Positions 20,578-39,026 of a stretch of DNA of 64,000 bases are shown one piece after another (within the stretch, counting starts at the first letter, position 1; every line of letters starts with the position of its first letter). Position numbers and translations under genes: made by a program. The notes below the pieces were generated by a model. The model saw only the letters and a program-made list of their open reading frames with translations. It made no database searches and was not told the origin of the DNA. Source of the stretch: an uncultured Leptospirales bacterium (GTDB lineage Bacteria > Spirochaetota > UBA4802 > JAKQUI01). The stretch covers positions 753 to 64,752 of the forward strand of contig CAZZCF010000008.1 of NCBI GenBank assembly GCA_964652955.1, in the 5' to 3' direction.

Positions 20578-21123
20578 ATGGACCAGAATGATATTGAACA
20601 GCAAGAACAGGCGATGGTTGAGGCAATTGCCTCAAAGCTCGATGAATTTGATAAGGAACGGGCCAGTCTCATACCGATACTGCAATGGATTCAATTTACC
20701 TACTCCTATCTTGATCCGAGGGCCATTGTGATGGTCGCTGATCATCTTGATATCAACGCCTGTGAGGTATACGGTGTTGCGACCTTCTATAATCAGTTTC
20801 GCTTTCATCCACCGGGGAAACATCAGATAAAGGTTTGTCTCGGGACCGCCTGTCATGTCAAGGGGGGAGATATCATTCTGGAGAATTTCGAGCGCAAGCT
20901 GGAGATCAAAGCAGGAGAGACAACTCCTGATCGGGAATTCAGTATCGATAAAGTCGCCTGTGTCGGGTGCTGTGCTCTTGCGCCGGTCGCAATCGTCGAT
21001 GATGAAGTTCACGCCTATGTTGCCCCGAGCAAGATAGAAGGGATTTTTCTCGGTTTCGAGCTTGAAAAGGAGAAGCAGCAGAGGGAAGAAGAAAAACAGA
21101 ATAAGGAAGAGCACGTTGATTGA
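20578..21123 (+). CDS. NuoE/HydC/HoxE-like [2Fe-2S] subunit
   Basis: LIPILQ.IQ..Y.YL, VYGVATFYNQFR..PPGKHQIKVCLGTACHVKGG, ACVGCCALAP. Confidence 0.92.
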   Translation: MDQNDIEQQEQAMVEAIASKLDEFDKERASLIPILQWIQFTYSYLDPRAIVMVADHLDINACEVYGVATFYNQFRFHPPGKHQIKVCLGTACHVKGGDIILENFERKLEIKAGETTPDREFSIDKVACVGCCALAPVAIVDDEVHAYVAPSKIEGIFLGFELEKEKQQREEEKQNKEEHVD

Positions 21124-23095
21124 TATAGACATAAAGGCAGTCGAACAGAAATATACCGCACTCAAAGATGAGGCAGAGAAGCGGTTAAGTGAGTGGGATG
21201 ATGGTACTCCTCGATTCCATGTTGGCATGGCAACCTGCGGCAGAGCAGCAGGTGCTCTGGAGACTGTCGCCGCTCTTGAAGAGACGCTCAAGGAACGGAA
21301 TATTAATGCGCGTATCGTACCCGTTGGATGCATCGGTCACTGTTATGCTGAACCCCTCGTTATTGCGCATAACCCCGGATTTCCGCCCATAGCCTATTAC
21401 GAGGTTACCCCGGGCAAGGCCCGGCTGCTGGTAAAATCGTTTCTCGAACGTGGCGATCCGCTCTTTGAATACGTTCTTGGCGCTATGGAACAGAACGATA
21501 TGGTCCCTTCGGTGATGGAATTCCCCCGCTTTAATCTCGAAAAGCGGATCGTCATGAAGGAGTGCGGTCTCATTGATCCGGGTGATATCTATCAGTATAT
21601 TGCCCGTGATGGCTACGCGGCGCTCGTCAAGGCGCTGTCCATGAAACGGGAGGATATCGTCGACGAGATTATCGACTCGGGGCTCAGGGGAAGAGGGGGC
21701 GCCGGATTTCCCACCGGCATGAAGTGGGAATTCGCAATGCACGCCAGTGAAGAGGATCGATATGTGATATGTAATGCGGATGAGGGTGATCCCGGCGCCT
21801 ATATGGACAGGACGATTATCGAGAGTAATCCTCATCAACTCCTTGAGGGTATCGCTATCGCTGCCTATACGGTGGGAGCGGAGAAGGCGATTATTTATGT
21901 CAGATCGGAATATCCCCTTGCCGTGGAGATCGTGCAAAAGGCGATTGAGCAGGCTGTCAGCGTTGATCTTCTCGGTACCGGTGTGCTGGGATCACCGTTC
22001 AATCTTGAGATTTCTGTTTTTCAGGGGTCCGGTGCTTTTGTATGCGGCGAGGAGACAGCCATGATTCAGTCTATTGAGGGGAAGCGGGGTATGCCTCAGC
22101 ATCGGCCCCCCTTTCCGGCTTCCAGCGGCCTGTATAATAAACCGACCGTTATCGACAACGTGAAGACGCTCTCCACGGTTCCATTCATCCTGCGAAGCGG
22201 TAGTGCCGCCTATAAAGAGGTGGGGACCACGAGCAGCCCGGGTACTGCCATATTCTCGGTGGTGGGGAACGTCGTCCATGCCGGGCTCGTTGAGATTCCC
22301 ATGGGTGTGACCATCGGTTCCCTTATATTCGATGTCTGCGGGGGTATCCCCAATAGAAAGAAGTTCAAAGCGGTTCAGATTGGCGGTCCCTCGGGTGGCT
22401 GTCTGCCGGAGAGCTTTCTCGATACACCCATCGATTTTGATTCGCTCACCAAGGCGGGAGCGATGATGGGCTCTGGCGGAATGGTTGTTATGGATGAGGA
22501 TTCCTGTATGGTTGATGTTGCGAGGTATTTCCTGGAGTTTACCCAGAATGAATCCTGTGGGAAGTGCACCTTCTGTCGCATCGGTACCAAGCATCTTCTC
22601 GAGATATTGACACGCCTCACGGAGGGAGAGGGGCGGGAAGGGGACCTCGAAATCCTGGAAACGCTGAGCGAGGATATCAAACGGGGCTCACTCTGTGGTC
22701 TGGGAAAGACAGCGCCGAATCCGGTTCTGACATCATTGAAGTACTTTCGTGATGAATACGAAGCGCATCTTTATGAGAAGCGCTGCCCGGCACTGAAATG
22801 TCGACATCTTATCGCCTTCTATATCGATCTCGACAAGTGTTCGCGGGGTTGTGATGCCTGTGTCGGGAGTTGTCCTGTTGAGGCGATATTCACTACCAAG
22901 GATCGGAAAAAAGCAATTGACCAGACCCTGTGCGTAAAATGTGGAGAGTGCGTGACCGCCTGTCCACCTGAATATGATGCAGTCAGGAAAGTATCACCTC
23001 CGGAACTTGCACCGATTATTGAACGACCGGAAAAGCCCGAAGGTAATGGAAAGGAAGAATCGTCGGATGGCTCAGAAGATAACGCTGCACGTTGA
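21116..23095 (+). CDS. Long NuoF/HydB-like FMN/NADH-binding subunit
   Basis: N-terminal thioredoxin-like Fe-S region (GMATCG...GCIGHCYAEP), SGLRGRGGAGFPTG, NADEGDPGAYMDR, GAFVCGEETA, ESCGKCTFCRIG, and C-terminal 2x[4Fe-4S] (CSRGCDACVGSCP, CVKCGECVTACP). TTG start overlaps the nuoE-like stop. Confidence 0.92.
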   Translation: MIDIDIKAVEQKYTALKDEAEKRLSEWDDGTPRFHVGMATCGRAAGALETVAALEETLKERNINARIVPVGCIGHCYAEPLVIAHNPGFPPIAYYEVTPGKARLLVKSFLERGDPLFEYVLGAMEQNDMVPSVMEFPRFNLEKRIVMKECGLIDPGDIYQYIARDGYAALVKALSMKREDIVDEIIDSGLRGRGGAGFPTGMKWEFAMHASEEDRYVICNADEGDPGAYMDRTIIESNPHQLLEGIAIAAYTVGAEKAIIYVRSEYPLAVEIVQKAIEQAVSVDLLGTGVLGSPFNLEISVFQGSGAFVCGEETAMIQSIEGKRGMPQHRPPFPASSGLYNKPTVIDNVKTLSTVPFILRSGSAAYKEVGTTSSPGTAIFSVVGNVVHAGLVEIPMGVTIGSLIFDVCGGIPNRKKFKAVQIGGPSGGCLPESFLDTPIDFDSLTKAGAMMGSGGMVVMDEDSCMVDVARYFLEFTQNESCGKCTFCRIGTKHLLEILTRLTEGEGREGDLEILETLSEDIKRGSLCGLGKTAPNPVLTSLKYFRDEYEAHLYEKRCPALKCRHLIAFYIDLDKCSRGCDACVGSCPVEAIFTTKDRKKAIDQTLCVKCGECVTACPPEYDAVRKVSPPELAPIIERPEKPEGNGKEESSDGSEDNAAR

Positions 23096-23714
23096 TGATC
23101 GGGAGATTGAAGCGGAAGAGGGGACAATACTTCTCCAGGTATGCCTTGATAATGATATCTATATACCCAATCTCTGTTATCTCAAGGAGCGAAAGAAAGC
23201 TGCTGCTTCCTGTCGACTCTGTTTTGTGGAAATTGGCGGGGAGAATAAGCCGGTAACGTCCTGCACCACCAGAGTTCGCGAAGGTATGACGGTGCGAACT
23301 GATACCCCGGAAATCAGAGCATTACAGAAAACGGCATTCGAGCTGCTCATGAGCACTCATAATGTCGACTGTAAGAACTGCCCTGCCAATAAGCGGTGTG
23401 AGTTGCAGAAAATAGCGAAGTTTCTCCATACCGGTTTGAAACCGAAGCGGATCGAAAAACTCGAGCGGGAAATACCGGTCGAGGAGCATCCCTTTTTGCA
23501 ATATTTTCCCGATAAATGCGTTCTCTGTGGCAGATGTATCGACATCTGCGAGCGAGTGCAGGGACGCCCCTACCTCACCTTTGCCCGACGGGGATTTAAT
23601 ATGTTCGTAAGCTTCTATGGCGAGGAGAGCCCGGATGATCTCCCCTGTGGGAGCTGTTATCAGTGTGTGGAGATATGCCCCGTCGCTGCTCTTCGTAAAA
23701 GAGATATGAACTAG
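23067..23714 (+). CDS. NuoG/HydA N-terminal-like (HoxU-like) Fe-S subunit lacking a catalytic domain
   Basis: [2Fe-2S] IP.LC...SCRLC...SC, HNVDCKNCPANKRC (HxxxCxxCx5C), CVLCGRCIDIC, CGSCYQCVEICP; the stop follows immediately. Confidence 0.9.
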   Translation: MAQKITLHVDDREIEAEEGTILLQVCLDNDIYIPNLCYLKERKKAAASCRLCFVEIGGENKPVTSCTTRVREGMTVRTDTPEIRALQKTAFELLMSTHNVDCKNCPANKRCELQKIAKFLHTGLKPKRIEKLEREIPVEEHPFLQYFPDKCVLCGRCIDICERVQGRPYLTFARRGFNMFVSFYGEESPDDLPCGSCYQCVEICPVAALRKRDMN

Positions 23715-23953
23715 CTCATTCGGGTAAATTTATTTTTTCGTAAAAAAATTTGTTGACCGGTAACCCATTTTTTTTAATGTGGCTCAAGAACCGTAATAAT
23801 ATTTTCATATTTAAATATTTAAAAGAAAGGAGTAGCGATAAATATCTGAACCTGGTTGAATAGCGGTTCAAACGATACATATTGTGTCATATCGTCGGAT
23901 ATTTGTCCCCTGGAAAGGGAAATTACAATCAAACGAAGTCAAGGAGGTAGTAA

Positions 23954-25720
23954 ATGGCACAACTTGATCCAACCAAGTATGCTGACTGGCAGATTGCAGC
24001 GGAAGCAGAGAAGAATATGCCGCTCCCTGAAGAGTGGCGTGACAAGTTAGGACTGGAAAAAGACGAAGTCATTACCTACGGAAGAATTTGCAAATTGGAT
24101 TTTTTGAAGATCATCGACCGTCTGAAGAAAAAGGCCGATGGCAAATACATAGAGGTTACCGCTATCACTCCGACTCCGTTGGGAGAGGGGAAAACGACAA
24201 CCTCTATGGGTCTCATTGAAGGAATGGGGAAGAGAGGAAAGAACGTCGGCGGAGCAATTCGCCAGCCCTCGGGCGGGCCCACCATGAATATCAAAGGAAC
24301 GGCTGCCGGCGGGGGAAATGCGCTCCTTATCCCCATGACGGAGTTCTCCATGGGTCTGACGGGTGATATTAACGATATCACCAATGCTCACAATCTTGCC
24401 CTGGTGGCGCTCACTGCCCGGCTCCAGCACGAATTCAATTATGATGATGAAGAGATGAAGAAGCGGGATCTCGGACCTCGTCTGAATATTGACCCGCGCC
24501 GCGTCGAGATGCTCTGGGCAATCGATTTCTGTGCCCAGGCATTGCGGAGGATAATTATCGGTCTCGGCGGCAAGATGGACGGTTTGATGATGCAATCGGG
24601 ATTCCAGATCACGGTAAGCTCCGAGCTCATGGCTATTCTCGCCATTGCCCGCGATCTCAAGGACCTGCGTGAGCGAATCGGCAAGGTAACGGTAGCATAC
24701 AGCAAGAAGGGTGACCCGGTTACCGCCGAGGAGCTGGGAGTTGCCGGTGCCATGACCGCCTGGATGAGAAATACCATCAATCCGACGCTGGCATGCACGG
24801 TTGAATATCAGCCCTGTATGGTACACGCCGGTCCCTTTGCAAACATTGCTGTAGGACAGTCTTCCATCATCGCCGATCGTGTCGGTCTTAAGATGTTTGA
24901 CTATCATATCACCGAAAGCGGTTTCGGCGCTGATATCGGTTTCGAGAAGTTCTGGAACGTGAAGTCACGGCTCAGCCAGCTCGCACCGAACGTTTCGGTT
25001 ATTACGGCGACCGTCAGGGCGCTGAAGATGCACGGCGGCGGCCCGACCGTCTCACCGGGACGACCGCTCCCCGATGAGTACACCAAGGAGAACCTCCAGC
25101 TCCTGGAAAAAGGAGTAGAGAATCTCCTTCACCATATCAAGATTGTACAGAAATCGGGCATCAAGCCGGTTGTCTGTATCAATGCCTTCCACACCGATAC
25201 CAAGGACGAAATCGCCCTGGTGCGCCGCTTTGTTGAGGAAGCGGGAGCGCGCTGCGCGCTCAGCGAGCACTGGTTAAAGGGAGGCGATGGAGCTCTTGAG
25301 TTGACCGACGCGGTTATCGATGCATGCGAGGAGAAGGTTGATTTCAAATTTCTCTACGATCTGAGCCTGCCGCTGCGACAGCGCGTGGAGACTATTGCGA
25401 AAGAGGTTTATGGCGCCGATGGAGTGAACTGGACTCCCGAAGCGGAGGAAAAGGCGAAGCGTTTTGAATCAGACCCGAAGTATAAGAACTTCTACACCAT
25501 GATGGTGAAGACGCATCTCAGCCTGACCCATGATCCTACCATCAAGGGTGTCCCGACGGGTTGGAAGCTTCCCGTGCGCGACATACTCCTTTTCTCAGGT
25601 GCAGAGTTCCTCTGCCCCATGACCGGAACGATAAGCCTGATGCCGGGTACCTCATCACTGCCGGCTTTTAAGAAGGTTGATGTGGACACGGGTAACGGCG
25701 AGGTAACCGGATTGTTTTAA
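23954..25720 (+). CDS. fhs: Formate--tetrahydrofolate ligase
   Basis: [84 protein letters not shown]. Confidence 0.96.
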
Positions 25721-25764
25721 CGCGAGGATGATTGTTCTCGCCTTTGTGATGCTATTTGTCAGCG

Positions 25765-25797
25765 CTCCGGGCGAGAGAGTGTCTCTCTCGCCCGGAG
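25765..25797. repeat. Perfect 15-bp hairpin downstream of fhs
   Basis: ctccgggcgagagag-tgt-ctctctcgcccggag; no U-tract. Confidence 0.85.
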
Positions 25798-25831
25798 ACT
25801 GTCATCTATCTCGGGTAACTCGACGGAGAGA

Positions 25832-26152
25832 ATGTATATGTCACTTTTTGAGAGAAGCGTGAGATTCTTCCCGGGCAGCAGAACCGGAGTTTGTGCGGGG
25901 GAGGGGAATCTCCTGCGCGCTGCTGAGAGCGCAGGAGAGAATATCGCCCTCCTCGACTGTGCCCTGCGTGAGTATTTCCCCTACCGGCAGTGGGAAGAAT
26001 CCGCTTCCGGAAATCCGATGAATCTCGTACGCCTTCCCTGTTTTGAAAAGCAATTATCCTTTATCTCAATGTGCTCACCGGTGCATGAAGATGTTATATC
26101 GTGCTCTGCCGGTAATAACACAATAAAGCTGGACCAGGAGATCGTTCAATGA
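25832..26152 (+). pseudogene. Probable relic of an AcsV/RACE (ASKHA-domain corrinoid activator) N-terminal ferredoxin domain
   Basis: SVRFFPGSRTGVCAGEGNLLRAAESAGENI resembles the V.F.P...GENL.RAA..AGV.I start of AcsV-type proteins, but the CGGxGxCGKC motif and the rest of the protein are absent. RBS GGAGAG; the stop overlaps the cooC ATG. Confidence 0.45.
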
Positions 26153-26904
26153 CTCGTATTATTGCAGTTGCTGGAAAGGGAGGAACCGGTAAGACAACCG
26201 TTTCATCGTTGATAATACGCTCACTGGTAAAGCGTGGCGAAACTCCCATTCTCGCTATTGATGCTGATCCCAACTCAAATCTTGCGGAATCTATCGGTCT
26301 TAACGTGCAGGATACTATCGGAAGCATGCTCGCCGATTTTCTTCGCACGCGGGCGGCGATCCCGCAGGGGATGACCAGACAGTCCTTTCTGGAGCTCAAG
26401 CTGCATCAGATTCTGAAAGAGGGAAGGGATATCGATATGCTTGCCATGGGGTGTCCCGAGGGACCCGGATGTTATTGTTCGGTTAATGCTCTGTTGAAGA
26501 GCTATTTCGAGGATCTCTCGAAGAACTATAAGAATGTTGTGGTTGACAATGAAGCCGGTATGGAGCATTTTAGCAGAAAGACCGCGAATGAGATAGATGT
26601 ACTCATATTCGTTTCAAACTATACGATGAAGGGGCTCAGGACGATTGAGACAATCTCTTCCATGATAGAAGAGCTGAAAATCGATGTTCGGGAGCAATAC
26701 CTTCTGGTGAGCAAAACGCCTGAGGATCTCAACGGTGAATTCATGAAGAGAATAGAAGAAATGCAGATCCCGTACCTCGGGAACATCGTAAGTGATTCGC
26801 GTATTGAAGAGTCGGACATAAGCGGCACACCGCTTATTGAGCTTCCGGATGATTCGGTTGCGGTACAGAGCATTGATTCAATGATGAACAGGATTTTACA
26901 CTGA
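26149..26904 (+). CDS. cooC: CODH/ACS nickel-insertion ATPase (CooC/AcsF)
   Basis: GKGGTGKTT, IDADPNSNL, GPGCYC, VDNEAGMEH.SR. Confidence 0.92.
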   Translation: MTRIIAVAGKGGTGKTTVSSLIIRSLVKRGETPILAIDADPNSNLAESIGLNVQDTIGSMLADFLRTRAAIPQGMTRQSFLELKLHQILKEGRDIDMLAMGCPEGPGCYCSVNALLKSYFEDLSKNYKNVVVDNEAGMEHFSRKTANEIDVLIFVSNYTMKGLRTIETISSMIEELKIDVREQYLLVSKTPEDLNGEFMKRIEEMQIPYLGNIVSDSRIEESDISGTPLIELPDDSVAVQSIDSMMNRILH

Positions 26905-26970
26905 TTGTTTTTATTCTCATGTTAATGTGTTGGTTTTCATGCTGAAATAATTAACCAAAGGGAGGAACGT

Positions 26971-27864
26971 ATGGCTGCAAAGATTATCAGCGGGACTGAA
27001 GTGGCCAAAGAGATACGAGAAGAGCTCAAGGCCGAAGTTGATAAGCTCAAGAAGGAGCACAATGTTGAACCGGGGCTCGTTACTATTCTGGTTGGGGAAA
27101 ATCCCGCCTCAGTTAGCTACGTCACAGCGAAGCAGAAAACATCCAAGGAGCTCGGCTTTAATTCGATTCAGGACAATCAGCCTGAAGACATATCCGAGGA
27201 GGATCTGCTCAAGCTGATTGATAAATACAACAAGGATCCGAAGATACACGGTATTCTGGTTCAGCTGCCGCTTCCGAAGCATATCAATGAGAACAAGGTT
27301 CTCTATGCAATTGATCCTGATAAGGACGTTGATGGTTTCCATCCGGTGAATGTTGGCCGGTTGATGATCGGTGAAGCACGCTTTTATCCCTGTACGCCTT
27401 ATGGAATACAGCAGCTGCTCATACGATCCGGTACGAAGATGGAAGGAGCTGAGGTTGTTGTCGTTGGAAGGAGCAATATTGTCGGCAAGCCCATTGCGAT
27501 GATGCTCATTCAGAAGAAGGAAGGGGCAAATTCGACCGTTACCATCTGCCATACGAGAACGAAGGACATGAAGGCACATACCCTCAAAGCCGATGTTCTC
27601 ATCGTCGCGGCAGGGGCGCCGAAGGCGGTCACAGCCGATATGGTGAAGGAGGGTGCAGTCGTCATCGATGTGGGTGTTAACCGCGTCGGCAAGACCCCCG
27701 AGGGGAAAGCGATTCTCGAGGGCGATGTTGATTTCGATGCGGTTAAGGAGAAGGCCAGTGCCATAACCCCCGTTCCCGGCGGTGTTGGCCCCATGACGAT
27801 AACAATGTTGATGTTGAATACCGTCAGGGCTGCGAAGATGGCCGCAGGTATTGAGGTTGATTAA
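26971..27864 (+). CDS. folD: Methylene-THF dehydrogenase/cyclohydrolase
   Basis: PASVSYV..K, GILVQLPLP, KDVDGFHP.NVG, PCTP.G, GRSNIVGKP, DVGVNR, PVPGGVGPMT. Confidence 0.97.
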   Translation: MAAKIISGTEVAKEIREELKAEVDKLKKEHNVEPGLVTILVGENPASVSYVTAKQKTSKELGFNSIQDNQPEDISEEDLLKLIDKYNKDPKIHGILVQLPLPKHINENKVLYAIDPDKDVDGFHPVNVGRLMIGEARFYPCTPYGIQQLLIRSGTKMEGAEVVVVGRSNIVGKPIAMMLIQKKEGANSTVTICHTRTKDMKAHTLKADVLIVAAGAPKAVTADMVKEGAVVIDVGVNRVGKTPEGKAILEGDVDFDAVKEKASAITPVPGGVGPMTITMLMLNTVRAAKMAAGIEVD

Positions 27865-28054
27865 GCGTTCCGGATGCCCGGATGCGATAGAAGGGTTCAG
27901 TTAATCAATGAATTGTTTGACAGTGTTGACATACGCTCCGGCTTCCAGAAATCTGTTTGAATGGAGAGAAGCCTGGCGGCGGGAAGCACTGCAAATTTTA
28001 CATATTAGGTAGTCTACGTCTTCTGATAAAAAATGTTTAGGGGGTAAAGATACT

Positions 28055-28273
28055 ATGGAATATACGTTCGTTGAAAAGAAGGATTTTATGGGTAAGACAG
28101 TTAAGGTCCTTGATGCAACCTATGAGCCGGGAGAACCCGAGATAATGGGCGTCGGAGAGGATCTCGGCTGGAGAAAGCACAATGTTGGAAAGGACGCTAT
28201 GTTGAAGTATTTAAAAAGCGCTCAGCGGTACTGGTACAGTGAAGATTGGTACGGAAGCGAGAAGAAAAGGTAG
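28055..28273 (+). CDS. Small hypothetical protein (72 aa) directly upstream of acsD
   Basis: Compact ORF in an intergenic gap, co-directional, with codon usage like its neighbours; Trp/Tyr-rich C-terminus AQRYWYSEDWYGSE. Confidence 0.75.
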   Translation: MEYTFVEKKDFMGKTVKVLDATYEPGEPEIMGVGEDLGWRKHNVGKDAMLKYLKSAQRYWYSEDWYGSEKKR

Positions 28274-28312
28274 TATTCATTTATTGTAAAATGTGACAAG
28301 GAGGAAAGGTAC

Positions 28313-29260
28313 ATGGCATTTGAAATACCGAAGATTGATTATACGGGGAAGATACGGGATATTACGCTGGGGAAAGGCGACAAGGCAGTAACGGTCGGCG
28401 GTGCGACCTGCTATCCCTTTCATCTCTTTGAGGGTGAGATGCCTCATCTTCCCAAGATCGCAATGGAGGTTTACGACTACGAGCCTGATGACTGGGCTGA
28501 AGCGGCTGTTGAGCCTTTCAAGGATGTAATCGGTGATCCGGCCGCCTGGGCGAAAAAGAACGTCGAAGAATACGGTGCCGAGCTCATTGCACTGCAGCTT
28601 CGGAGCATCGATCCCAACGGATTGAACCGTTCGGCCCAGGAAGCAGCAGATATCGCAAAGAGCGTTATTGAAGCCGTTGATGTTCCCGTCATACTCTGGG
28701 GCGTTGCCAATCACGAGAAGGACACCGAGGTTCTCCGGCTCATCGCAGAGCAGTGCGAGGGGATGAGCCTTGTTCTGGGGCCCGTCGAGGAGGGAGATTA
28801 CAAGCAGATAGGTGCCGGTGCGATTGCCTACAAGCATACGGTTATTGCATCAACGCCTATTGATATCAACCTTGCAAAGCAGCTGAATATTCTTCTCGAT
28901 AATCTCGGGGTTCCGGCAAACCAGATCATCGTTGATCCCACAACCGGAGCGCTCGGCTATGGCCTGGAGTATACCTATTCCGTTATGGAGAGGGACCGAA
29001 TGGCCGCACTTACTCAGGAGGATGTGAAGCTTCAGTATCCGATCATCTGTAATGTCGGTTACGAGGCATGGAAGATGAAAGAAGCGAAGATCAAGGAAGA
29101 GGATGAGCCGATTCTGGGAAATGCGAAGGATCGAGCGATTATCATAGAGTGCATAACCGCAATGAGTCTTCTCCTTGCGGGTGCTGATGTGCTCATCATG
29201 AGACATCCCGAATCGATTGAGCTGATAAGAAAGATGATCACCGGTCTTACGACTGATTAA
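28313..29260 (+). CDS. acsD: Corrinoid Fe-S protein small subunit
   Basis: TVGG....PFHLFEG.MP, PIDINLAKQLNILL, DPTTGALGYGLEYTYSVMER.R.AAL; RBS AGGAGG. Confidence 0.95.
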   Translation: MAFEIPKIDYTGKIRDITLGKGDKAVTVGGATCYPFHLFEGEMPHLPKIAMEVYDYEPDDWAEAAVEPFKDVIGDPAAWAKKNVEEYGAELIALQLRSIDPNGLNRSAQEAADIAKSVIEAVDVPVILWGVANHEKDTEVLRLIAEQCEGMSLVLGPVEEGDYKQIGAGAIAYKHTVIASTPIDINLAKQLNILLDNLGVPANQIIVDPTTGALGYGLEYTYSVMERDRMAALTQEDVKLQYPIICNVGYEAWKMKEAKIKEEDEPILGNAKDRAIIIECITAMSLLLAGADVLIMRHPESIELIRKMITGLTTD

Positions 29261-29281
29261 TTATTTAAAGGAGGATTTTAA

Positions 29282-31231
29282 ATGGCCGAAGAAAAAGCAA
29301 AACCAATTAGTGCCGATAAAGCGACCGTTGAAGCCTACGAACATGCGAAGAGTCTGGGCATAAACACGGTTTTCGACAGAAATGAGGATATGAAACCCTG
29401 TCCCATAGGTGCCGCGGGCAGTTGCTGCAAGAACTGCTCCATGGGACCGTGCCGCGTTCCCGCACCGAAGAAGGAAGGGGAAAAGCCAAAGGTTGGCATC
29501 TGCGGTGCGACGGCGGAGACCATAGCCGCCCGTAACTTTATCAGGATGATAGCCGGTGGCGCTGCCGCTCACTCCGATCACGGCAGGGGCGTTGCAGAAG
29601 TGTTCATTGCCGCGGCGAAAGGAGAGATACCCGGCTACGAGATCAAGGACGAACAGAAGCTCCTGGCCGTAGCGATGGATCTCGAGATCGATGTCGAGGG
29701 AAAGGATATCAAGGAGCTTGCTCTTGAGGTCGGCGAGAAAGCGCTGTCCGAATGGGGCAAACAGGAAGGGCAGGTTCTCTTTCTGAAGAAGGCGCCTCAG
29801 AAGAGACAGGAGGTCTGGAAAGCGGCAGGTGTCTGGCCTCGAGGCGTTGATAGAGAGATTGTTGAGATAATGCACCGAACGCACATCGGTGTTGATATGG
29901 ATTACAAGAGCCTGATGCAGCAGGGGACGCGAGCAGCACTCGGTGACGGCTGGGGCGGTTCCATGATGGCAACGGAGCTTCAGGATATCCTCTTCGGGAC
30001 ACCGGTACCGGTATACGGCGAAGCGAACCTCGGGGTGCTGAAAAAGGATGAGGTGAATCTCGTTGTTCACGGTCATGAGCCCCTCCTCTCCGAAATGATC
30101 GTTATTGCATCACGCGACCCGGAGATGCTGGATCTGGCGAAGTCGGTGGGAGCAAAGGGGATCAATATATCGGGCATCTGCTGTACCGCAAACGAGGTCC
30201 TGATGCGGCACGGTATTCCCATCGCCGGTAATTTCCTGCAGCAGGAGCTGGCCATCACCACCGGCGCTGTGGATGCGATGATTGTCGACGTACAGTGCAT
30301 CATGCAGTCGCTGCAGAACGTCGCTTCCTGCTTCCACACCAAGCTCATCACCACAAGCCCGAAAGCCCATATCACCGGTGCCGACCGGATTCTCTTCGAT
30401 GAGCATGACGCCCTGAACTCGGCGAAGAAGATTGTCAGGACAACCATTGAGAATTTCGCCAATCGAAAGGGTGAGATCATCATTCCCGATGAGAAGTCGC
30501 CGATGATAGCCGGGTTCAGCCATGAGACCATCAACTATCTCCTCGGCGGAACTTTCAGAGCCTCTTACCGACCGCTGAACGATAATATCATCAACGGGCG
30601 GATTCGGGGAATTGGCGGCGTCGTCGGTTGCAATAATGTCAGGACGACTCACGACAACGATCACCTGACCGTTATCAAGGAGCTCATCAAGAACGATGTT
30701 ATCGTTCTTACGACCGGCTGTAGCGCCATCGCGGCTGCCAAAGCGGGACTTATGACTCCTGAGGCTGCTGGTAAGTATGCCGGAGAGGGTCTCGCCGAGG
30801 TCTGTGAGACCGTGGGTATCCCACCGGTTCTTCACATGGGCTCATGCGTTGATAACAGCAGAATACTGATAGCAGCGGCCGCCGTGGTGAAGGATGGCGG
30901 TCTGGGTGAAGACATCAGCGATCTCCCGGCTGCTGGTTCTGCGCCTGAATGGATGAGCGAGAAGGCGATCTCCATCGGTCACTACTTTGTTTCCTCCGGT
31001 GTGTACACTGTTTTCGGGACGACCTTCCCGACAGGCAGCAAGGAATTCACCGAGTATCTGTTCAAGAACTTTGAAGAGACCTATGGTGGCATGTGGGATT
31101 TCGAACCGGATCCGGTTGAACATGCAAGGAAGATGATTGCCCATATCGACAGGAAGCGCAAGGAGCTCGGCATTGACAAGGCGAGGGAGCGTATTCTCTA
31201 CGATATGGAAATGAGAAGAGAGCTTGCTTAA
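29282..31231 (+). CDS. acsA: Anaerobic CO dehydrogenase catalytic subunit
   Basis: CPIG..GSCCKNCSMGPC, HSDHGR, HGHEP, ICCTANE, VDVQCI, GGVVGCNN, TTGCSA, HMGSCVDNSR, EWMSEKA. Confidence 0.96.
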   Translation: MAEEKAKPISADKATVEAYEHAKSLGINTVFDRNEDMKPCPIGAAGSCCKNCSMGPCRVPAPKKEGEKPKVGICGATAETIAARNFIRMIAGGAAAHSDHGRGVAEVFIAAAKGEIPGYEIKDEQKLLAVAMDLEIDVEGKDIKELALEVGEKALSEWGKQEGQVLFLKKAPQKRQEVWKAAGVWPRGVDREIVEIMHRTHIGVDMDYKSLMQQGTRAALGDGWGGSMMATELQDILFGTPVPVYGEANLGVLKKDEVNLVVHGHEPLLSEMIVIASRDPEMLDLAKSVGAKGINISGICCTANEVLMRHGIPIAGNFLQQELAITTGAVDAMIVDVQCIMQSLQNVASCFHTKLITTSPKAHITGADRILFDEHDALNSAKKIVRTTIENFANRKGEIIIPDEKSPMIAGFSHETINYLLGGTFRASYRPLNDNIINGRIRGIGGVVGCNNVRTTHDNDHLTVIKELIKNDVIVLTTGCSAIAAAKAGLMTPEAAGKYAGEGLAEVCETVGIPPVLHMGSCVDNSRILIAAAAVVKDGGLGEDISDLPAAGSAPEWMSEKAISIGHYFVSSGVYTVFGTTFPTGSKEFTEYLFKNFEETYGGMWDFEPDPVEHARKMIAHIDRKRKELGIDKARERILYDMEMRRELA

Positions 31232-31279
31232 TATACGAGCAGCGTTTTACAACAATAACCTTTCTACAGGAGGAGCAAA

Positions 31280-33484
31280 GTGTCTAAAATAATAGCTTCA
31301 GCAGCCATCAGAGGCGCTCACAAGATAGTAGAGAGAGCTGATAAGAAGATAAAAGAGGCCATAGATAAATTCGGCCCCAATCAGGAAGTGGCTTTCCCGA
31401 ACACGGGATACTATCTCCCTGTTATCTATGGCATTACCGGAGAGAAGGTCGAGAAGCTCGGTGATATGGAGGGGGTACTGAAGATAAGTAAAAATCTTCT
31501 CCCGCCCTTTGTCAAGGAGAAGCATCACCTCCCGTATCTCGGTCCGGTGCTCGATGCAGGTATGGCGACCTTCTTCGCCGAGGAGATGATAGAGGCGATA
31601 AAGTATATCGAAAACCCGAATATCTATGTTCAGGGTGAGGATCCCACGGATGATAATATCTGGCTCGGGGCGGCAGATGATGTTATTCTGAGAAAGAGAG
31701 GCGTCGAGTTCGTTGACGGAACGGCTCCCGGATTTGCCGCCATGCTCGGTGCGCCGGAGGATCCGGAAGTTGCCTCGAAGCTCGCCCTGGAGCTTCAGGA
31801 GAAGAACCTCTATGTCTTTATGGCATCCGATACGGATGGCAGAACCATGTCGGAACAGCTGGTTCAGCAGGGGGTGCAGATCGGGTGGCCAACACGACTG
31901 GTCTCCTTCGGCCCCGAAACCAGCTCCGCGATATTCGCTATCGGTTTCGCGACGCGGGCCGCCATGTCCTTCGGGGGAATTGAGGCGGGTGACTATAGAA
32001 GGATTCTCATCTATAACAAGGACAGAATTTTTGCGTTCGCCATAACTTTCGGTACTGTAAACGATGAGTGGTACGCAAACGGTGCGGGATGTATTAACTG
32101 GGGATTTCCCGTTATCACCGATTCGCCGACACCTCAGATTCTGCCGACCGGTATCTGTACCTACGAACATGTCGTGGCCAACATTCCATATAATGACATC
32201 GTCGCTAAGGCCATCGAGGTGCGGGGACTCAAGGTTACCGTATCCAAGGTTCCGGTACCCGTTTCATACGGCCCGGCTTTCGAGGGTGAGCGTGTTCGCG
32301 GTGACGATATCTATCTTGAAGCCGGCGGCGGCAGAACGCATGCGGTTGAGCTGGTTACCTCTGCTGATATGGACAAGGTGACCGATGGCAAGATTGAGGT
32401 CGTCGGACCGGATGTGACGGATGTCGAGCCTGGAAGCCAGCTTCCCCTCGCTATCTATGTCGAGGTTGCCGGTCGTGAAATGCAGGACGACTTTGAGCCG
32501 ATTCTCGAGCGGCAGATACACCATCTCATCAACTATGCTCAGGGGACGATGCATATCGGTCAGCGCGATATTGCATGGCTTCGTGTCAGTAAACAGGCGG
32601 TCGAGAAGGGATTCAAGCTCTCCAACCTCGGTGATATTCTGCATGCGAAATTCCATCAGGATTTCGGCACCATCTTCGACAAGGTGCAGATAACCATTTA
32701 CACCGAAGAGGACAAGGTCAATGAGATTCTCGAAAAGGCCAGGGGAATATATAAGCAAAGGGATGATAGAATTGCGGGCATGACCGATGAAGACACCGAT
32801 CCCTTCTACTCCTGTACGCTGTGCCAGTCCTTTGCGCCGAATCACGTCTGTATTGTAACCCCTGAGCGGACCGGTCTCTGTGGAGCCTATAACTGGCTTG
32901 ACTGCAAGGCGTCGTTTGAGATAAATCCTACCGGTCCGAATCAGCCGGTTCCCAAGGGTGATGTTATTGATGCCAAATTCGGACAGTGGAAAGGAACCAA
33001 TGAGTTTGTTGCCAAGGCGTCACGCGGCAATGTTACGATCGTTGATGCATACAGCATTATGAGAAACCCGATGACCTCATGCGGGTGCTTCGAATGTATC
33101 GCTGCGGTGCTTCCCAGCTGCAACGGTATCATGACCGTCGACCGGGATACATCTGTTATGACCCCCTGCGGGATGAAGTTCACCACCCTGGCGGGGACCG
33201 TTGGAGGTGGGAATGTCACGCCGGGATTTGTCGGGCACAGTAAGTACTATATTACGAGTAAAAAATTCATATTAGCCGAAGGTGGGCTGAAGCGAATGGT
33301 ATGGATGCCGAAATCTCTTAAAGAGGAGATAAAGGAGAGATTTCTTACGCGGGCTGAAGAGCTCGGTATTCCCGATCTTCTCGATCGAATTGCCGATGAA
33401 ACGGTTGCGACTACCGAGGAGGAGGTGCTGGCGTACATTACCGAGAAGAAGCATCCTGCGCTGGAGATGGAGTCTATCATTTAA
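31280..33484 (+). CDS. acsB: Acetyl-CoA synthase (bacterial type, with N-terminal domain)
   Basis: FPNTGYYLP, PAFEGERVR, YSCTLCQSFAPNHVC..PER.GLCGA, MTSCGCFEC A-cluster ligands; GTG start after AGGAG. Confidence 0.97.
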   Translation: MSKIIASAAIRGAHKIVERADKKIKEAIDKFGPNQEVAFPNTGYYLPVIYGITGEKVEKLGDMEGVLKISKNLLPPFVKEKHHLPYLGPVLDAGMATFFAEEMIEAIKYIENPNIYVQGEDPTDDNIWLGAADDVILRKRGVEFVDGTAPGFAAMLGAPEDPEVASKLALELQEKNLYVFMASDTDGRTMSEQLVQQGVQIGWPTRLVSFGPETSSAIFAIGFATRAAMSFGGIEAGDYRRILIYNKDRIFAFAITFGTVNDEWYANGAGCINWGFPVITDSPTPQILPTGICTYEHVVANIPYNDIVAKAIEVRGLKVTVSKVPVPVSYGPAFEGERVRGDDIYLEAGGGRTHAVELVTSADMDKVTDGKIEVVGPDVTDVEPGSQLPLAIYVEVAGREMQDDFEPILERQIHHLINYAQGTMHIGQRDIAWLRVSKQAVEKGFKLSNLGDILHAKFHQDFGTIFDKVQITIYTEEDKVNEILEKARGIYKQRDDRIAGMTDEDTDPFYSCTLCQSFAPNHVCIVTPERTGLCGAYNWLDCKASFEINPTGPNQPVPKGDVIDAKFGQWKGTNEFVAKASRGNVTIVDAYSIMRNPMTSCGCFECIAAVLPSCNGIMTVDRDTSVMTPCGMKFTTLAGTVGGGNVTPGFVGHSKYYITSKKFILAEGGLKRMVWMPKSLKEEIKERFLTRAEELGIPDLLDRIADETVATTEEEVLAYITEKKHPALEMESII

Positions 33485-33499
33485 GCGATACCGTATTCC

Positions 33500-33526
33500 T
33501 CCCGGCCCCGCAGAGCGGGGCCGGGA
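33500..33526. repeat. GC-rich 12-bp hairpin between acsB and acsC
   Basis: tcccggccccgc-aga-gcggggccggga; no U-tract. Confidence 0.8.
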
Positions 33527-33595
33527 ATCTACCAAGCGGAGAGAGATTATTTGCATTAATGGTTCACAGAAATAAGACATAAAGGAGAAATCGAG

Positions 33596-34933
33596 ATGGC
33601 GCTAACAGGAATACAGATTTATAAGTTGTTGCCACAGACTAACTGTGGTGATTGCGGTGTGCCCACCTGTCTCGCCTTTGCGATGAAACTCGCAGCAGGC
33701 CAGGCGGAGCTGAGCGCATGCCCGCATGTTTCGGAAGAGGCGAAGGAGCAACTCGGTGCTGCATCGGCACCTCCGGTGCTGCCGGTCACCATCGGGAAGA
33801 ATTTCAAGACCGGCGGTGAAACAGTGCTCTTCAGGCACGAAAAGACCTTTGTCAGTCCAACCGGTGTCGCGGTTCTCGTATCGGATAAAATGGATGATGC
33901 CGAAGTTGATAGAAAATTGAAGAATTTTAAAGAACTTCAATTCGAGCGGGTGGGAGTGATTCTGAAGTCGGATCTCATTGCGGTGAAGTCGGAAACCGGT
34001 GATGCGGCTGCTTTCGAAAAGCTGGTTGCTAAGGTAAAGGGTGCTGTTGAAGCAGGCATCATTTTAATGAGTGACAAGCCTGAGGTTCTTGAGGCCGGTG
34101 CGAAGCTTCTGGAAGGGGAAAAACCTCTCCTCTATGCTGCAACAAAGGATACGGTCGAGGCGGTTGGAAATATCGCCAAAGAGCAGAAGTGTCCCGTTGC
34201 GGTAAAGGGTGACGGCCTGGAAGATGTTATTGCGCTCACCGAGAAGCTCACGGAGATGGGGATCAAGGAGATCGTTATCGATACCGGTTCACGGAAGCTT
34301 AAAAAGGCATTTGAGGAACAGGTCATAATCAGGCGAGCTGCAATCAAGAATACCTTCAGACCGCTCGGATTCCCGACCATAACCTTCCCCTGCGAGATGA
34401 CGGACAATTTCCTGGAGGAAACCCTCATCGCATCGACCTTCATTGCGAAGTACAGCGGTATTGTGGTGCTTTCTGATCTTGCAGGCCACAGCCTCTTCCC
34501 GCTGCTGGTTGAGCGGATGAACATATTCACCGATCCGCAGCGGCCAATGGCCACCGAGGAGGGTATCTACGAGATTAACAATCCGGATGAGAATTCTCCG
34601 GTTCTTGTCACGACCAATTTCTCACTGACCTATTTTATTGTCATGGGTGAGATAGAGGCGAGCAGGGTTCCCACCTGGCTGCTGGTTATGGATACCGAGG
34701 GGCTTTCGGTCTTAACCGCCTGGGCAGCCGGTAAATTTGTTGCCGATGCTATCGCTCCCTTTGTGAAGAAGTGCGGAATTGCAGATAAGGTTAAGAATAA
34801 AACACTGGTGATTCCCGGGTATTCTGCAACGATAAGCGGAGAGCTCGAAGAGGAGCTTCCCGATTGGACTATTACCATTGGCCCGCGTGAGGCGGCGCAC
34901 ATTCCGGCGTTCCTGAAAGAGCAAAAAGCTTAG
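33596..34933 (+). CDS. acsC: Corrinoid Fe-S protein large subunit
   Basis: LPQTNCGDCGVPTCLAFAMKLA...CP, ETVLFRHEKTF, FTDPQRPM, TTNFSLTYF, SVLTAWAAGKF. Confidence 0.96.
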   Translation: MALTGIQIYKLLPQTNCGDCGVPTCLAFAMKLAAGQAELSACPHVSEEAKEQLGAASAPPVLPVTIGKNFKTGGETVLFRHEKTFVSPTGVAVLVSDKMDDAEVDRKLKNFKELQFERVGVILKSDLIAVKSETGDAAAFEKLVAKVKGAVEAGIILMSDKPEVLEAGAKLLEGEKPLLYAATKDTVEAVGNIAKEQKCPVAVKGDGLEDVIALTEKLTEMGIKEIVIDTGSRKLKKAFEEQVIIRRAAIKNTFRPLGFPTITFPCEMTDNFLEETLIASTFIAKYSGIVVLSDLAGHSLFPLLVERMNIFTDPQRPMATEEGIYEINNPDENSPVLVTTNFSLTYFIVMGEIEASRVPTWLLVMDTEGLSVLTAWAAGKFVADAIAPFVKKCGIADKVKNKTLVIPGYSATISGELEEELPDWTITIGPREAAHIPAFLKEQKA

Positions 34934-34954
34934 AACAGAATAGAGGTAAGAATA

Positions 34955-35842
34955 ATGGGAAAATTTATTCGAATCGGTGAAAATCTGAATGTTATGTCAA
35001 AGGTTCTCGGTCCGGCGATGAAGGAGCGAAACGCCGGCCCTATTCAGGAGATGGCAAAGCGTGAAGCTGAAAAGGGAGTTGATTATATTGATGTGAACAT
35101 AGGGCCTGCCAGAAAGGCAGGGGATGAGATGATGGAATGGCTTGTGAACACCATTCAGGAAGTAACGGATATTCCCCTTGCTCTTGATACAACAAATCTT
35201 GTCGCGATGGAAGCCGGCTTGAAGGCCAGTAAGGGTGGTGCTCTGATTAACTCAGTTTCGCTTCAGACCTCGCGGCTGATTCCCGGGCTAGAGCTGGCAG
35301 CAAAGTACAATGCGGACGTTATAGCCCTCCTGTGGAGCGATGATGGAATGCCACGCGATGCAAATGAGCGCGCGATGCACATTGTCGACTTCATGCACAA
35401 AGCGACTGAGATCGGTGTTCCCACCGAAAAGCTCTGGGTTGATCCCATTGTCACACCCGTATCCGTTGAGGTCAATCAGGTGAAGGCCTGTATTGAGTTT
35501 ATGGGCATGCTCAAGGATATTGCGCCTGAAGCAAAGTCCACATGCGGCCTGTCCAATGTATCGAATGGTGTTCCCGATGAGCTCAGGCACTGGTTGAATA
35601 TAACCTACCTCATCATGCTGATGAAGAATGGGCTCCATTCGGCCATTATCGATTCATTCGATGATGAGCTTACGTCCTTTGTGAGCGGCGAACGGGATGA
35701 CATTGTCAATCTCGTTCACCGGGTGATGGACGGCGAGAAGATTGATATGGGCTCCCTCAGTGATGAAGAGGTCAAGTTCGTTAAAACAGTGCGTGTCTTG
35801 ACGGGTGAGTCGCTGTTTTCAGATTCCTGGCTCGATATTTAA
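34955..35842 (+). CDS. acsE: Methyl-THF:corrinoid Fe-S protein methyltransferase
   Basis: IGENLN, IDVNIGP, LDTTN..AMEAGL, INS, DPIV.P, CGLSNVSNG pterin-binding barrel motifs. Confidence 0.92.
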   Translation: MGKFIRIGENLNVMSKVLGPAMKERNAGPIQEMAKREAEKGVDYIDVNIGPARKAGDEMMEWLVNTIQEVTDIPLALDTTNLVAMEAGLKASKGGALINSVSLQTSRLIPGLELAAKYNADVIALLWSDDGMPRDANERAMHIVDFMHKATEIGVPTEKLWVDPIVTPVSVEVNQVKACIEFMGMLKDIAPEAKSTCGLSNVSNGVPDELRHWLNITYLIMLMKNGLHSAIIDSFDDELTSFVSGERDDIVNLVHRVMDGEKIDMGSLSDEEVKFVKTVRVLTGESLFSDSWLDI

Positions 35843-35926
35843 GTATTCAGCAAAACCGGGAGACAGCATCCCGGCTCCCGGTAGGAAAGTTCTGTGCTTG
35901 AGAGAAGCGAAAGTTGAAGTTGAAAA

Positions 35927-36604
35927 ATGGTTGATACACAGGCGAATTCTGAAGGAGCCTCATCGATTAAGCCGGGAGGGCAGAAAAGTACTTACGAATC
36001 AGCTTATACGGAGGCTGTTGCAAAGCTTTCAGAACGCACTGTCGAAGCGATAGCAGAGAAGAGCGGTTCGCGGATCGGCGAGAAGGATGGCATCACCTTC
36101 ATCACGGTTCCTTTTTTAGATGATGAAATCGATATATTCTTTCCCGATATATCCTTTCGCTATCAACGAAGGGATGATACGGTGCCGCTGTGGCTTCAGG
36201 TACTCGTTCTTCACTATCTCCTTGCTGCGACGGGTGTAACGGAGACGGGCGTTCAGATAACCTTCAAACAGCTTAAAGGGGGAATGGCGTATTATCCGGT
36301 TTTTCAGAAGAGGGCCATTACCCCCCTTATTAACACCTTCGGCGAGCATCTCGAGGATTTCATTACATTCGGCGTTATGATAGGGGGCACCAGGGCTGAG
36401 CACGGGGACTATGCGCTCACCTTCAGGGCATTTCCCTACGTTGCGGTAACCTTTGTTATCTGGGAGGGGGATGAAGATTTTCCACCTGCCGGGAATGTTA
36501 TTTTTGATTCGTCGGTTGAACAGTATCTTACCTCGGATGATGTCGCCATGCTCTGTACCATGCTTGCTGTGATGATTATAAAGAAGAAGTTTGAGAGAGA
36601 ATGA
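35927..36604 (+). CDS. DUF3786 domain protein
   Basis: LVLHYLL.A, ITFKQL.GG..Y...FQKRA..PL, FP.VAVTFVIWEGDEDFP.AGN.IFD; typical neighbour of acs genes. Confidence 0.85.
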   Translation: MVDTQANSEGASSIKPGGQKSTYESAYTEAVAKLSERTVEAIAEKSGSRIGEKDGITFITVPFLDDEIDIFFPDISFRYQRRDDTVPLWLQVLVLHYLLAATGVTETGVQITFKQLKGGMAYYPVFQKRAITPLINTFGEHLEDFITFGVMIGGTRAEHGDYALTFRAFPYVAVTFVIWEGDEDFPPAGNVIFDSSVEQYLTSDDVAMLCTMLAVMIIKKKFERE

Positions 36605-37362: not shown

Positions 37363-37459
37363 AGGTATAGTAAAGGGAAGAGAGAATTCTTTTCCGAGGC
37401 GGTTGTTGACAGCGCGAGAGCGAAGCGAGTGGGTAACTTGAGTTGAGGAGGAAAGGGGC

Positions 37460-38146: not shown

Positions 38147-38580
38147 TGAAGGGAGCAAAAGAGATGGAAGCAGTACATGACGCTGATGAGCGGCCGGTTG
38201 ATACCGAAACCATCAGGAAAATGCTCAAGCAGAAGAAGAGGATGAAATTGTTTCTCTCCATCTGTGCTTCCTGCGGGTTTTGTGCCGATAGCTGTTTTCT
38301 ATATCGAAATCATCAGGATCCCAAGTACATGCCTTCGTATAAGGCGATTAACTCATTGGGCAAGCTCTTCAAAAAACGGGGAAAGGTGGATCGAAAGACT
38401 CTCGAGGAGATGAGTGAGCTCATCTATGGGCGCTGTGTGATGTGCCGCCGCTGTTATTGCCCGCTGGGTATCGATATTTCGAGTATGATTTCATGGGCCC
38501 GAACCATCTGTCGTACGCAGGGGGTCTACGAACGGTATGATGAGGATGCGATGGGGTATGGGAAAGAGATTGGGGCATGA
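38134..38580 (+). CDS. Short 2x[4Fe-4S] protein: TmcB/HmcF/DsrK-like N-terminal domain without CCG domains
   Basis: CASCGFCADSC...PSYK and CVMCRRCYCPLGIDI; only 148 aa, and the next gene starts 13 nt after the stop. Confidence 0.82.
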   Translation: MAILVKGAKEMEAVHDADERPVDTETIRKMLKQKKRMKLFLSICASCGFCADSCFLYRNHQDPKYMPSYKAINSLGKLFKKRGKVDRKTLEEMSELIYGRCVMCRRCYCPLGIDISSMISWARTICRTQGVYERYDEDAMGYGKEIGA

Positions 38581-38593
38581 AGGGGTATCAAGG

Positions 38594-39001: not shown

Positions 39002-39026
39002 TGTTGATACAGTATGGGAGGCGTAC

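Follow-up and report, generated by a model that had tools for sequence, protein, structure and literature searches.

A 64,000-nucleotide stretch of contig C8 (positions 753-64752; hereafter the window), part of a 4.96 Mb bacterial genome assembly of 375 contigs that is 93% complete, carries three co-directional genes at the head of a Wood-Ljungdahl cluster. Their products resemble NuoE, a long form of NuoF and a short form of NuoG, and, judged by sequence, this trio is a Bfu (HydABC-type) core rather than a Hox diaphorase or a module of complex I. We propose, with a probability of roughly 0.45, that the trio forms a stand-alone BfuABC-type complex through which NAD(H), a low-potential carrier and, in trans, a third partner exchange electrons. 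This partner would most probably be the carbonyl branch of the pathway, that is, carbon monoxide dehydrogenase/acetyl-CoA synthase (CODH/ACS), or the corrinoid iron-sulfur protein (CoFeSP) with RACo, the ATP-dependent activator of corrinoid protein.

Schut et al. (2022, PMC9304861) took a conserved BfuBC core as the definition of the Bfu family, and we designate the three products BfuC (NuoE-like), BfuB (long NuoF-like) and BfuA (short NuoG-like). BfuC, with a single predicted [2Fe-2S] cluster, scores 148 bits with the NCBIfam NuoE model, above its cut-off of 141, and fails the HoxE model (131 against 224). In BfuB, Pfam detects Complex1_51K (PF01512), a weak SLBB match (PF10531), NADH_4Fe-4S (PF10589) and an Fer4 dicluster at residues 587-636. 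Together with alignments, these matches describe an N-terminal thioredoxin-like (Trx-like) [2Fe-2S] region, a flavin mononucleotide (FMN)/NAD(H) domain, an SLBB domain, an N3-type [4Fe-4S] cluster, a site known as B2, a C-terminal 2x[4Fe-4S] domain and a clade-specific tail. Pfam gives no match at residues 34-130, which align with the N-termini of NfnB, 8OH5_B and HydB and keep the cysteine pattern TCG...GCxGxC. Proteins of solved structure (NfnB 9N5U, 8OH5_B, 9BOV_B, NiFe-HydB 7T2R and HydB 7Q4V, 8A6T and 7P5H) match BfuB from residue 34 onwards at about 50-55% identity, with E-values of 1e-204 to 1e-174. An earlier sequence-only reading of the window had assigned this subunit the long HydB architecture, and Pfam and the alignments to HydB 7P5H and the other solved relatives agree. 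The NuoF equivalog model is missed, with 478 bits against a cut-off of 558.65.

Two published sets of residues bear on whether BfuB belongs to a bifurcating lineage. Schut et al. (2022) singled out the five-ligand [2Fe-2S] site B2, formed in A. mobile HydB by C438, C476, H525, C531 and C536. We tested for the pattern Cys, Cys/Thr, His, Cys, Cys, and a gap-free alignment to 7T2R_B (A. mobile HydB) places C464, T502, H551, C557 and C562 of the window protein at these positions. Losey et al. (2020) separated bifurcating from non-bifurcating beta subunits by A/E-x-M after GDPG, the Phe in GAGAF, and GGPSG; the window protein has all of these, as GDPGAYMDR, GSGAFVCGEE and IGGPSGG. The sequence-only reading had pointed to GDPGAYMDR, PPFP and NVKT, all of which occur in the translation, and had taken the first two as marks of bifurcation. 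GDPGAYMDR corresponds to a published criterion; PPFP is not among the Losey criteria and is not diagnostic, as the bifurcating NfnB has PPYP.

BfuA contains Fer2_4 (PF13510), NADH-G_4Fe-4S_3 (PF10588) and Fer4_Nqo3 (PF22117) and no further domain, providing ligands for a [2Fe-2S] cluster, a His-ligated [4Fe-4S] cluster and 2x[4Fe-4S]. It matches residues 3-204 of T. maritima HydA (7P5H_A), fails the HoxU model (156 bits against 333) and stops 12 residues past its last CP motif, in keeping with the earlier statement that the third gene ends straight after its last [4Fe-4S] motif. BfuA is thus predicted to be an iron-sulfur wire only, whose His-ligated cluster and ferredoxin-like pair correspond to the two exit ports of other family members. 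Neither the trio nor the 239 nt downstream of it encodes a domain or subunit for a third substrate, and the same holds in 62 of the 69 related trio loci described below (subclade B).

The same three subunits are found in the solved complexes HydABC (T. maritima 7P5H; A. woodii/T. kivui 7Q4V/8A6T), NiFe-HydABCSL (7T2R), NfnABC (9N5U) and 8OH5. The domain order of BfuB and all its cofactor ligands, B2 included, are alike in the solved cores and the trio. The differences are that the trio has no H-cluster, NiFe subunits or NADPH-binding GltD domain, either in BfuA or beside it, and that its clade has Q142E, E350K/K378A, a CX3C insertion, loss of His599 and a conserved C-terminal tail. The assignment to a Bfu-type core therefore rests on the domains, the B2 ligands and the Losey residues, together with the missed HoxE, HoxU and NuoF cut-offs. 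Schut et al. (2022) also listed Bfu clades without an assignable function.

A FastTree estimate from 160 BfuB sequences, the sampling of which was partly driven by the NVKT pattern, places the window protein in a clade of 80 tips (support 0.82) with members from Desulfobacterota, Bacillota and Chloroflexota. The clade has K350 in 80/80 members, A378 in 78/80 and E142 in 77/80. Changes essentially confined to it are Q142E, F138R, a one-residue insertion that yields a CX3CX2CX3CP first ferredoxin motif, H599K and the tail PPEYxAVxKxSPP; the insertion, H599K and the tail all fall within what is the ferredoxin-binding domain of solved relatives. Subclade A consists of 11 tips, mostly Chloroflexota, all 11 of which lie inside cdh/acs operons in the order acsB-acsC-nuoE-nuoF-cooC, with BfuA missing in 10 of them. 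Subclade B (69 tips, support 0.99) includes the window and comprises the nuoE-nuoF-short nuoG trios of Desulfobacterota, Bacillota (Syntrophomonadaceae, Moorellales-type) and Dehalococcoidia. Its BfuA proteins are 209-224 aa long with conserved cluster ligands, and the His-cluster motif is present in 54 of 56. Across the whole clade the catalytic subunit is not encoded nearby, so its absence from the window is not the result of local decay; the sequence-only description of a bifurcating-type core with no catalytic subunit beside it is therefore true of the clade as well as of this genome.

The NVKT motif was described in the sequence-only reading as an unusual replacement of NVET. It is indeed present, and fixed in the window's clade, but it is a recurrent and compensated exchange rather than an oddity of this gene. 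In a first set of 81 homologues, the 30 closest had NVKT and the other 51 NVET. A DNA pattern scan finds NVKT in other Bfu subfamilies as well, beside FdhA, CooS, GltB-like proteins and NuoF-GltD/MetVF sets, and NVKT as a unique functional marker was therefore rejected. Position 350 (the E of NVET) covaries without exception with position 378 (the K of GTK) across the 160 sequences: the pairs are E/K in 54, K/A in 96, K/M in 6, K/Q in 1 and K/V in 1, and E/A and K/K do not occur. On the tree, at least five independent E-K switches lie outside the window's clade, each with K378 changed to A, M, Q or V; one of them sets the NuoF-GltD protein of this same genome apart from its Dehalococcoidia sisters. 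From this pattern we infer that residues 350 and 378 are in contact, probably through a salt bridge that is replaced when the lysine moves. Because E350K is coupled with K378A and recurs across the family, NVKT reads as a compensated variant and not as a defect.

The link between the trio and the Wood-Ljungdahl pathway has three sources: co-occurrence with AcsB, the location of subclade A and recurrent adjacency to acs genes or RACo. In a sample of 301 genomes drawn evenly from the phylum, with orthologues counted at 66% identity or more, the trio occurs in four, all in the window's taxonomic order. AcsB is found in 45 of the 301 (15%) and in 4/4 of the trio carriers. Counted over all phyla, an AcsB match is present in 43 of the 54 genomes with the trio, about 40 of these matches being full length, although relatedness among genomes inflates these counts and many of the genomes are incomplete bins. 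The carriers that lack such a match are metagenome bins of small size (1.0-3.2 Mb), among them two, with loci L033 and L034, that are labelled Desulfobacteraceae or Deltaproteobacteria at only 2.0 Mb; L033 has RACo beside the trio. The clade is close to restricted to carriers of the pathway.

Pathway genes (acs, fhs or RACo) adjoin the trio in 7 of the 69 subclade-B loci. The acs or fhs contacts are those of the window (trio-fhs), L023 (fhs-trio-acsDABC) and L042 (trio-cooC-acsE), and RACo, confirmed by Pfam, lies beside the trio in L021, L022, L024 and L033. The Wood-Ljungdahl link drawn in the sequence-only reading is thus partly supported, but the position at the head of the cluster is not conserved, as about 90% of loci stand alone. 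With regard to RACo itself, the best homologue in this genome (C6:20527-25462) is 33% identical to the trio-adjacent RACo and belongs to a separate cluster of methyltransferase and corrinoid-protein genes, outside the acs cluster. No RACo match was found in the nearest trio carrier, G269, which is 96% complete. The idea that the Bfu core replaces RACo in acs operons was rejected, with RACo present in 7 of the 11 subclade-A genomes.

A second recurrent neighbour is a small protein with a cyclic nucleotide monophosphate (cNMP)-binding domain and no DNA-binding or effector domain. In 16 of the 69 trio loci, the window included, nuoE is immediately preceded by a homologue of its gene, at a distance of -4 to 43 nt in several of them. 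Translational coupling of this gene to RACo as well as nuoE occurs in some cases; in L022, the RACo, cNMP and nuoE genes overlap start to stop. The protein may be a regulator or a regulatory subunit of the trio.

A predicted system offers a further comparison. Schut et al. (2022) predicted a Codh-Bfu (type 2 Bfu) in Acetohalobium and Clostridium cellulovorans, and we find this type inside acs clusters of other Desulfobacterota (L181-L185, in genomes G021, G118, G097, G035 and G090), enclosed by a complete CODH/ACS operon of the order cooC-acsA-cooF-nuoE-nuoF(NVET)-short nuoG-acsB-acsC-RACo-cooC-acsD. Codh-Bfu and the trio are alike in being Bfu cores with a short BfuA that are linked to CO dehydrogenase genes, and for both the proposed third substrate comes from the carbonyl branch; the occurrence of these sets in acs clusters lends independent support to a carbonyl-branch link. 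They differ in that Codh-Bfu has CODH and a CooF-like protein encoded between its bfu genes, a BfuA without the His-ligated cluster and a BfuB with NVET. The window trio is separate and retains the His cluster, its BfuB falls in another clade, and fhs, cooC, folD and acsD lie between the trio and acsA.

On the proposed mechanism, NAD(H) would react at the FMN of BfuB, and the remodelled C-terminal double-cluster domain would be where the low-potential carrier acts; in this clade, a protein partner might take its place. Electrons would leave through BfuA by way of either the His-ligated cluster or the distal ferredoxin-like cluster. They would pass to CODH/ACS itself or to the corrinoid protein with its activator RACo, thereby tying acetyl-CoA cleavage or synthesis to the NADH pool, and the upstream cNMP-domain protein would probably regulate the trio. 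The carbonyl branch is the best candidate because the other partners considered below are less likely and because of the association with acs, RACo and AcsB. A more far-reaching joint reading is tentative and, taken as a whole, somewhat unlikely. It concerns the lineages with this clade: sulfate reducers that oxidise completely, syntrophic acetate oxidisers and Dehalococcoidia. Ferredoxin would there not be the only redox partner of CODH/ACS, as a Bfu core dedicated to the carbonyl branch would dock on CODH, or on the corrinoid protein and its activator. Through this core, NAD(H) would be linked to the cleavage or synthesis of acetyl-CoA or to reductive corrinoid repair, with the cNMP-domain protein as a switch, and the trio would be the detached, trans-acting form of the Chloroflexota cdh/acs module.

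Several observations weigh against docking on the carbonyl branch. Among the 45 genomes of the phylum sample with AcsB, only 4 have the trio; it is thus dispensable for the pathway, of which it is an accessory and not a core part. The co-occurrence with AcsB is confounded by phylogeny and lifestyle. In the three nearest carriers (G269, G050 and G061; 66-75% identity) the trio lies away from the acs genes, so that the closest relatives do not share the position beside the pathway genes. In the complete genome of Desulfonema magnum, where the trio lies at about 6.72-6.74 Mb of NZ_CP061800.1, the acs locus is megabases away, and in 62 of the 69 trio loci the adjacent genes are variable and unrelated. 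The window cluster encodes no CooF-like bridge, unlike the predicted Codh-Bfu clusters. A Rosetta-stone search with the short BfuA returned, among the best 150 of 11,091 matches, long proteins of FdhA/NuoG type with a similar N-terminus and no fusion from the clade, so that within these matches no domain fusion points to a partner. The trio locus appeared in no RNA run in a transcript search. Finally, bifurcation is not a thermodynamic requirement of CO oxidation, which can drive the reduction of NAD+ as well as ferredoxin without it; a simple NAD-linked route may therefore operate instead, particularly in the BfuA-less subclade A.

By sequence inspection, the conserved neighbours of the Bacillota trios resemble genes with housekeeping roles (asparagine synthase, HAD phosphatases, NAD kinase-like, GlmM, SfsA). 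A gene for a flavin adenine dinucleotide (FAD)-dependent, pyridine-nucleotide-disulfide-oxidoreductase-like protein of ~410 aa lies near the trio in eight loci (L020, L031, L104, L107, L125, L139, L141 and L168) from both Desulfobacterota and Bacillota; it was judged from its sequence and from a weak BLAST match to the GltD part of the NuoF-GltD protein encoded on contig C100. In D. magnum (NZ_CP061800.1, L019:10020-12635), a protein of 871 aa that reads like a methyl-accepting chemotaxis protein is encoded between nuoF and the short nuoG and breaks the otherwise tight trio.

As an alternative, the trio may have no fixed catalytic partner and be a complete, self-contained diaphorase that links NAD(H) with ferredoxin, flavodoxin or some other small soluble redox protein, like isolated cyanobacterial HoxEFU. 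We consider this unlikely, though it fares best among the alternatives. The genes form a compact, translationally coupled unit with variable neighbours in 62/69 loci, the length and clusters of BfuA are strictly conserved with no added domain, and the fusion search described above found no partner. HoxEFU is likewise a three-subunit NAD(H) module, whose third subunit (about 215-240 aa) has the same four clusters, so that the cluster complement of BfuA equals that of HoxU. Unlike HoxEFU, the trio fails the HoxE and HoxU models and has no accompanying hoxYH, and its BfuB has an extra C-terminal double-cluster domain and the B2 site. A simple diaphorase would not need this full bifurcation-type cofactor set, Rnf is already present in the genome for ferredoxin:NAD+ exchange, and neither the near-confinement of the clade to AcsB-positive genomes nor the position of subclade A inside acs operons would be explained.

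Formate, a classic third substrate of Bfu enzymes, raises the alternative that the trio is the NAD(H)/ferredoxin module of a remote formate dehydrogenase (FDH) of Fdh-Bfu or HylABC-FdhF type. The genome search for fdhA that the sequence-only reading had proposed identifies a cytoplasmic, Cys-type FdhA (TIGR01591, 928 bits) on contig C143 with no NuoEF beside it, and in the basal tip L136 FdhA adjoins a clade-type NuoF. However, the C143 FdhA has its own NuoG-like N-terminus, which makes a separate BfuA redundant. In G269, moreover, orthologues of this FdhA (70%) and of a different NuoF, from contig C343 (79%), share a nuoE-hndB-nuoF-fdhA operon, and G050 and G061 also have a different NuoF beside FdhA. 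A remote FDH partner is therefore very unlikely, as FdhA pairs with another NuoF lineage. In the present assembly, C343:1-2058, a 2-kb contig, carries the HndB-like and NuoF genes, and C143:4634-9260 has the FdhA gene beside glyA; since their orthologues form one operon in G269, the assembly is fragmented or rearranged there.

It is scarcely probable that the trio feeds or drains the methylene-tetrahydrofolate (methylene-THF) reductase MetVF, even though the metVF genes lie 15 kb downstream in the same cluster, MetV is encoded near the module in L044, and a NuoEFG-linked 'X-type' reductase has been proposed for Desulfobacterales and Chloroflexi. The window metVF is preceded by its own module of a NarI-like membrane protein and a cytochrome c3, a pairing that is kept in G191 without the trio. 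A second metVF, on contig C100, has its own NuoG-Mo, NuoE and NuoF-GltD set, and in no subclade-B locus does MetVF adjoin the trio. Because MetVF has the cytochrome module and this separate NuoEFG-type set, the trio is not its likely partner. The second set forms one operon (C100:4181-11904) for a NuoG-like molybdopterin protein (836 aa), NuoE, a NuoF-GltD fusion (1037 aa), MetV and MetF, an order that matches the unstudied 'X-type' methylene-THF reductase arrangement of Yi et al. (2021); Dehalococcoidia versions of this operon carry NVKT. The sequence-only reading had named CODH, MetVF and a remote FDH as possible docking partners, and CODH/ACS emerges as the best candidate, the other two having NuoF-type modules or cytochromes of their own.

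A hydrogenase partner (HoxYH or [FeFe] HydA) lost from the assembly is about as improbable as MetVF. The trio does have the HoxEFU/HydABC subunit pattern, and gaps are conceivable in a 93%-complete genome of 375 contigs with one NuoF paralogue on a 2-kb contig. However, searches of the genome for HoxYH and an H-cluster hydrogenase found no cognate partner and no H-cluster domain, the HoxE and HoxU models fail as described, and no hydrogenase gene adjoins any of the 69 trio loci. As the sequence-only reading had stated for hydrogenase and FDH genes, the window contains no hydrogenase or molybdopterin enzyme among open reading frames (ORFs) of 150 aa or more. The sole [NiFe] large subunit belongs to the periplasmic group 1 and lies just past the window end, at C8:64818-65732, where it is cut by the contig end; it adjoins a gene for a membrane-bound polyferredoxin-like protein (Fer4_5) at window positions 62834-63781 on the minus strand.

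Least probable of all is a detached NADH-input module of 11-subunit complex I, as suggested for orphan nuoEFG genes in genome papers on Chloroflexi and syntrophic acetate oxidisers: NuoA is absent from this genome and from 19 other carriers, among them G269, G050, D. magnum with its complete genome, and 14 of the 15 carriers in Bacillota, which led us to reject this module, and in addition BfuA has no large NuoG body and the NuoF score falls under its cut-off.

Other NuoF-type proteins of this genome were also inspected. A second trio at C3:79334-86256 comprises NuoE (173 aa), a long NuoF (641 aa, NVET) and a short NuoG (221 aa) that has no His cluster and ends in a Cys-rich tail. It is flanked by two glutamate-synthase-domain-like FMN proteins (525 and 534 aa), and pairing of NuoF with GltB-like proteins recurs in Terriglobia and Bacillota loci (L099, L106, L127, L121 and L155). 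An apparent fifth NuoF, on C105, turned out to be RnfC.

The features of the locus are collected in Table 1. Gene calls were based on ORFs, with starts chosen from ribosome-binding sites (RBSs). Three co-directional ORFs span 20578-21123, 21062-23095 and 22974-23714; the nuoF-like gene probably starts at a TTG at 21116 (RBS aaggaag, 7 nt upstream) and the short nuoG-like gene at an ATG at 23067 (RBS ggaaaggaag). The resulting proteins have 181, 659 and 215 aa and the genes overlap by 8 nt and 29 nt, so that the overlapping nuoE-, long nuoF- and short nuoG-like genes of the sequence-only reading are borne out by the ORFs, the RBS-based starts and Pfam. A frameshifted catalytic domain downstream of 23714, the finding that would have spoken against an orphan module, is absent: the AT-rich 239-nt gap before fhs holds no coding remnant and is too short for a decayed catalytic domain. 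The junction between the short nuoG and fhs is not an assembly artefact, because contigs from two independent studies carry it unchanged: one contig of run X1 covers 20431-24964 and a contig of the other study 23071-24965, each with zero differences. A consensus scan for promoters and terminators around the trio gave nothing above the shuffled background. The Wood-Ljungdahl cluster continues in the order fhs, a 106-aa ORF, cooC, folD, acsD, acsA, acsB, acsC, acsE, DUF3786, cooC, NarI-like membrane protein, cytochrome c3, metV and metF. The 106-aa ORF (25832-26152) between fhs and cooC has no Pfam match, and decayed RACo/AcsV was rejected as its origin, BLASTP finding no similarity (E 2.7).

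Table 1. Features of the trio locus, in window coordinates.
Feature	Position	Strand	Basis
cNMP-binding-domain protein, 155 aa	19673..20140	+	Pfam PF00027 only
BfuC / NuoE-like, 181 aa, Trx-like [2Fe-2S] (C1)	20578..21123	+	PF01257, 1.2e-46
BfuB / long NuoF-like, 659 aa	21116..23095	+	Pfam domains, solved relatives, B2 ligands
BfuA / short NuoG- or HoxU-like, 215 aa, no catalytic domain	23067..23714	+	Pfam, HydA alignment
AT-rich gap between trio and fhs, no coding remnant	23715..23953	.	Sequence read
Wood-Ljungdahl cluster (context)	23954..40747	+	Pfam

The Bfu family, its orphan clades and the predicted Codh-Bfu are already published, as are orphan NuoEFG genes in organisms with the pathway. 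The latter include 'Ca. Syntrophonatronum acetioxidans', where soluble NuoEFG-type genes without a membrane arm were noted in acetate-oxidising Syntrophomonadaceae and left unexplained (PMC6295475). Syntrophomonadaceae supply a large share of the clade. No mention of the trio genes was found in literature on the evolution of the Wood-Ljungdahl pathway in Desulfobacterota, on syntrophic sulfate reducers and on Desulfobacteraceae proteogenomics. What is new here is the definition of the pathway-restricted clade and of the markers that set it apart, the covariation of E/K with K/A, the association with RACo and with the cNMP-domain protein, and the case against FDH, MetVF, complex I and hydrogenases as partners in this genome.

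For annotation, the markers E142, K350/A378, the CX3C insertion and the C-terminal tail separate the clade from subunits of complex I, Hox enzymes and hydrogenases, and D. magnum provides a cultured, fully sequenced carrier. Because the clade is pathway-restricted, has a full cofactor set without a catalytic subunit and has its sister group inside cdh/acs operons, it is a testable candidate for an NAD(H) link to CODH/ACS. As such, it may bear both on the balance between ferredoxin and NADH in Wood-Ljungdahl organisms, especially those running the pathway in reverse, and on the source of electrons for corrinoid reactivation.

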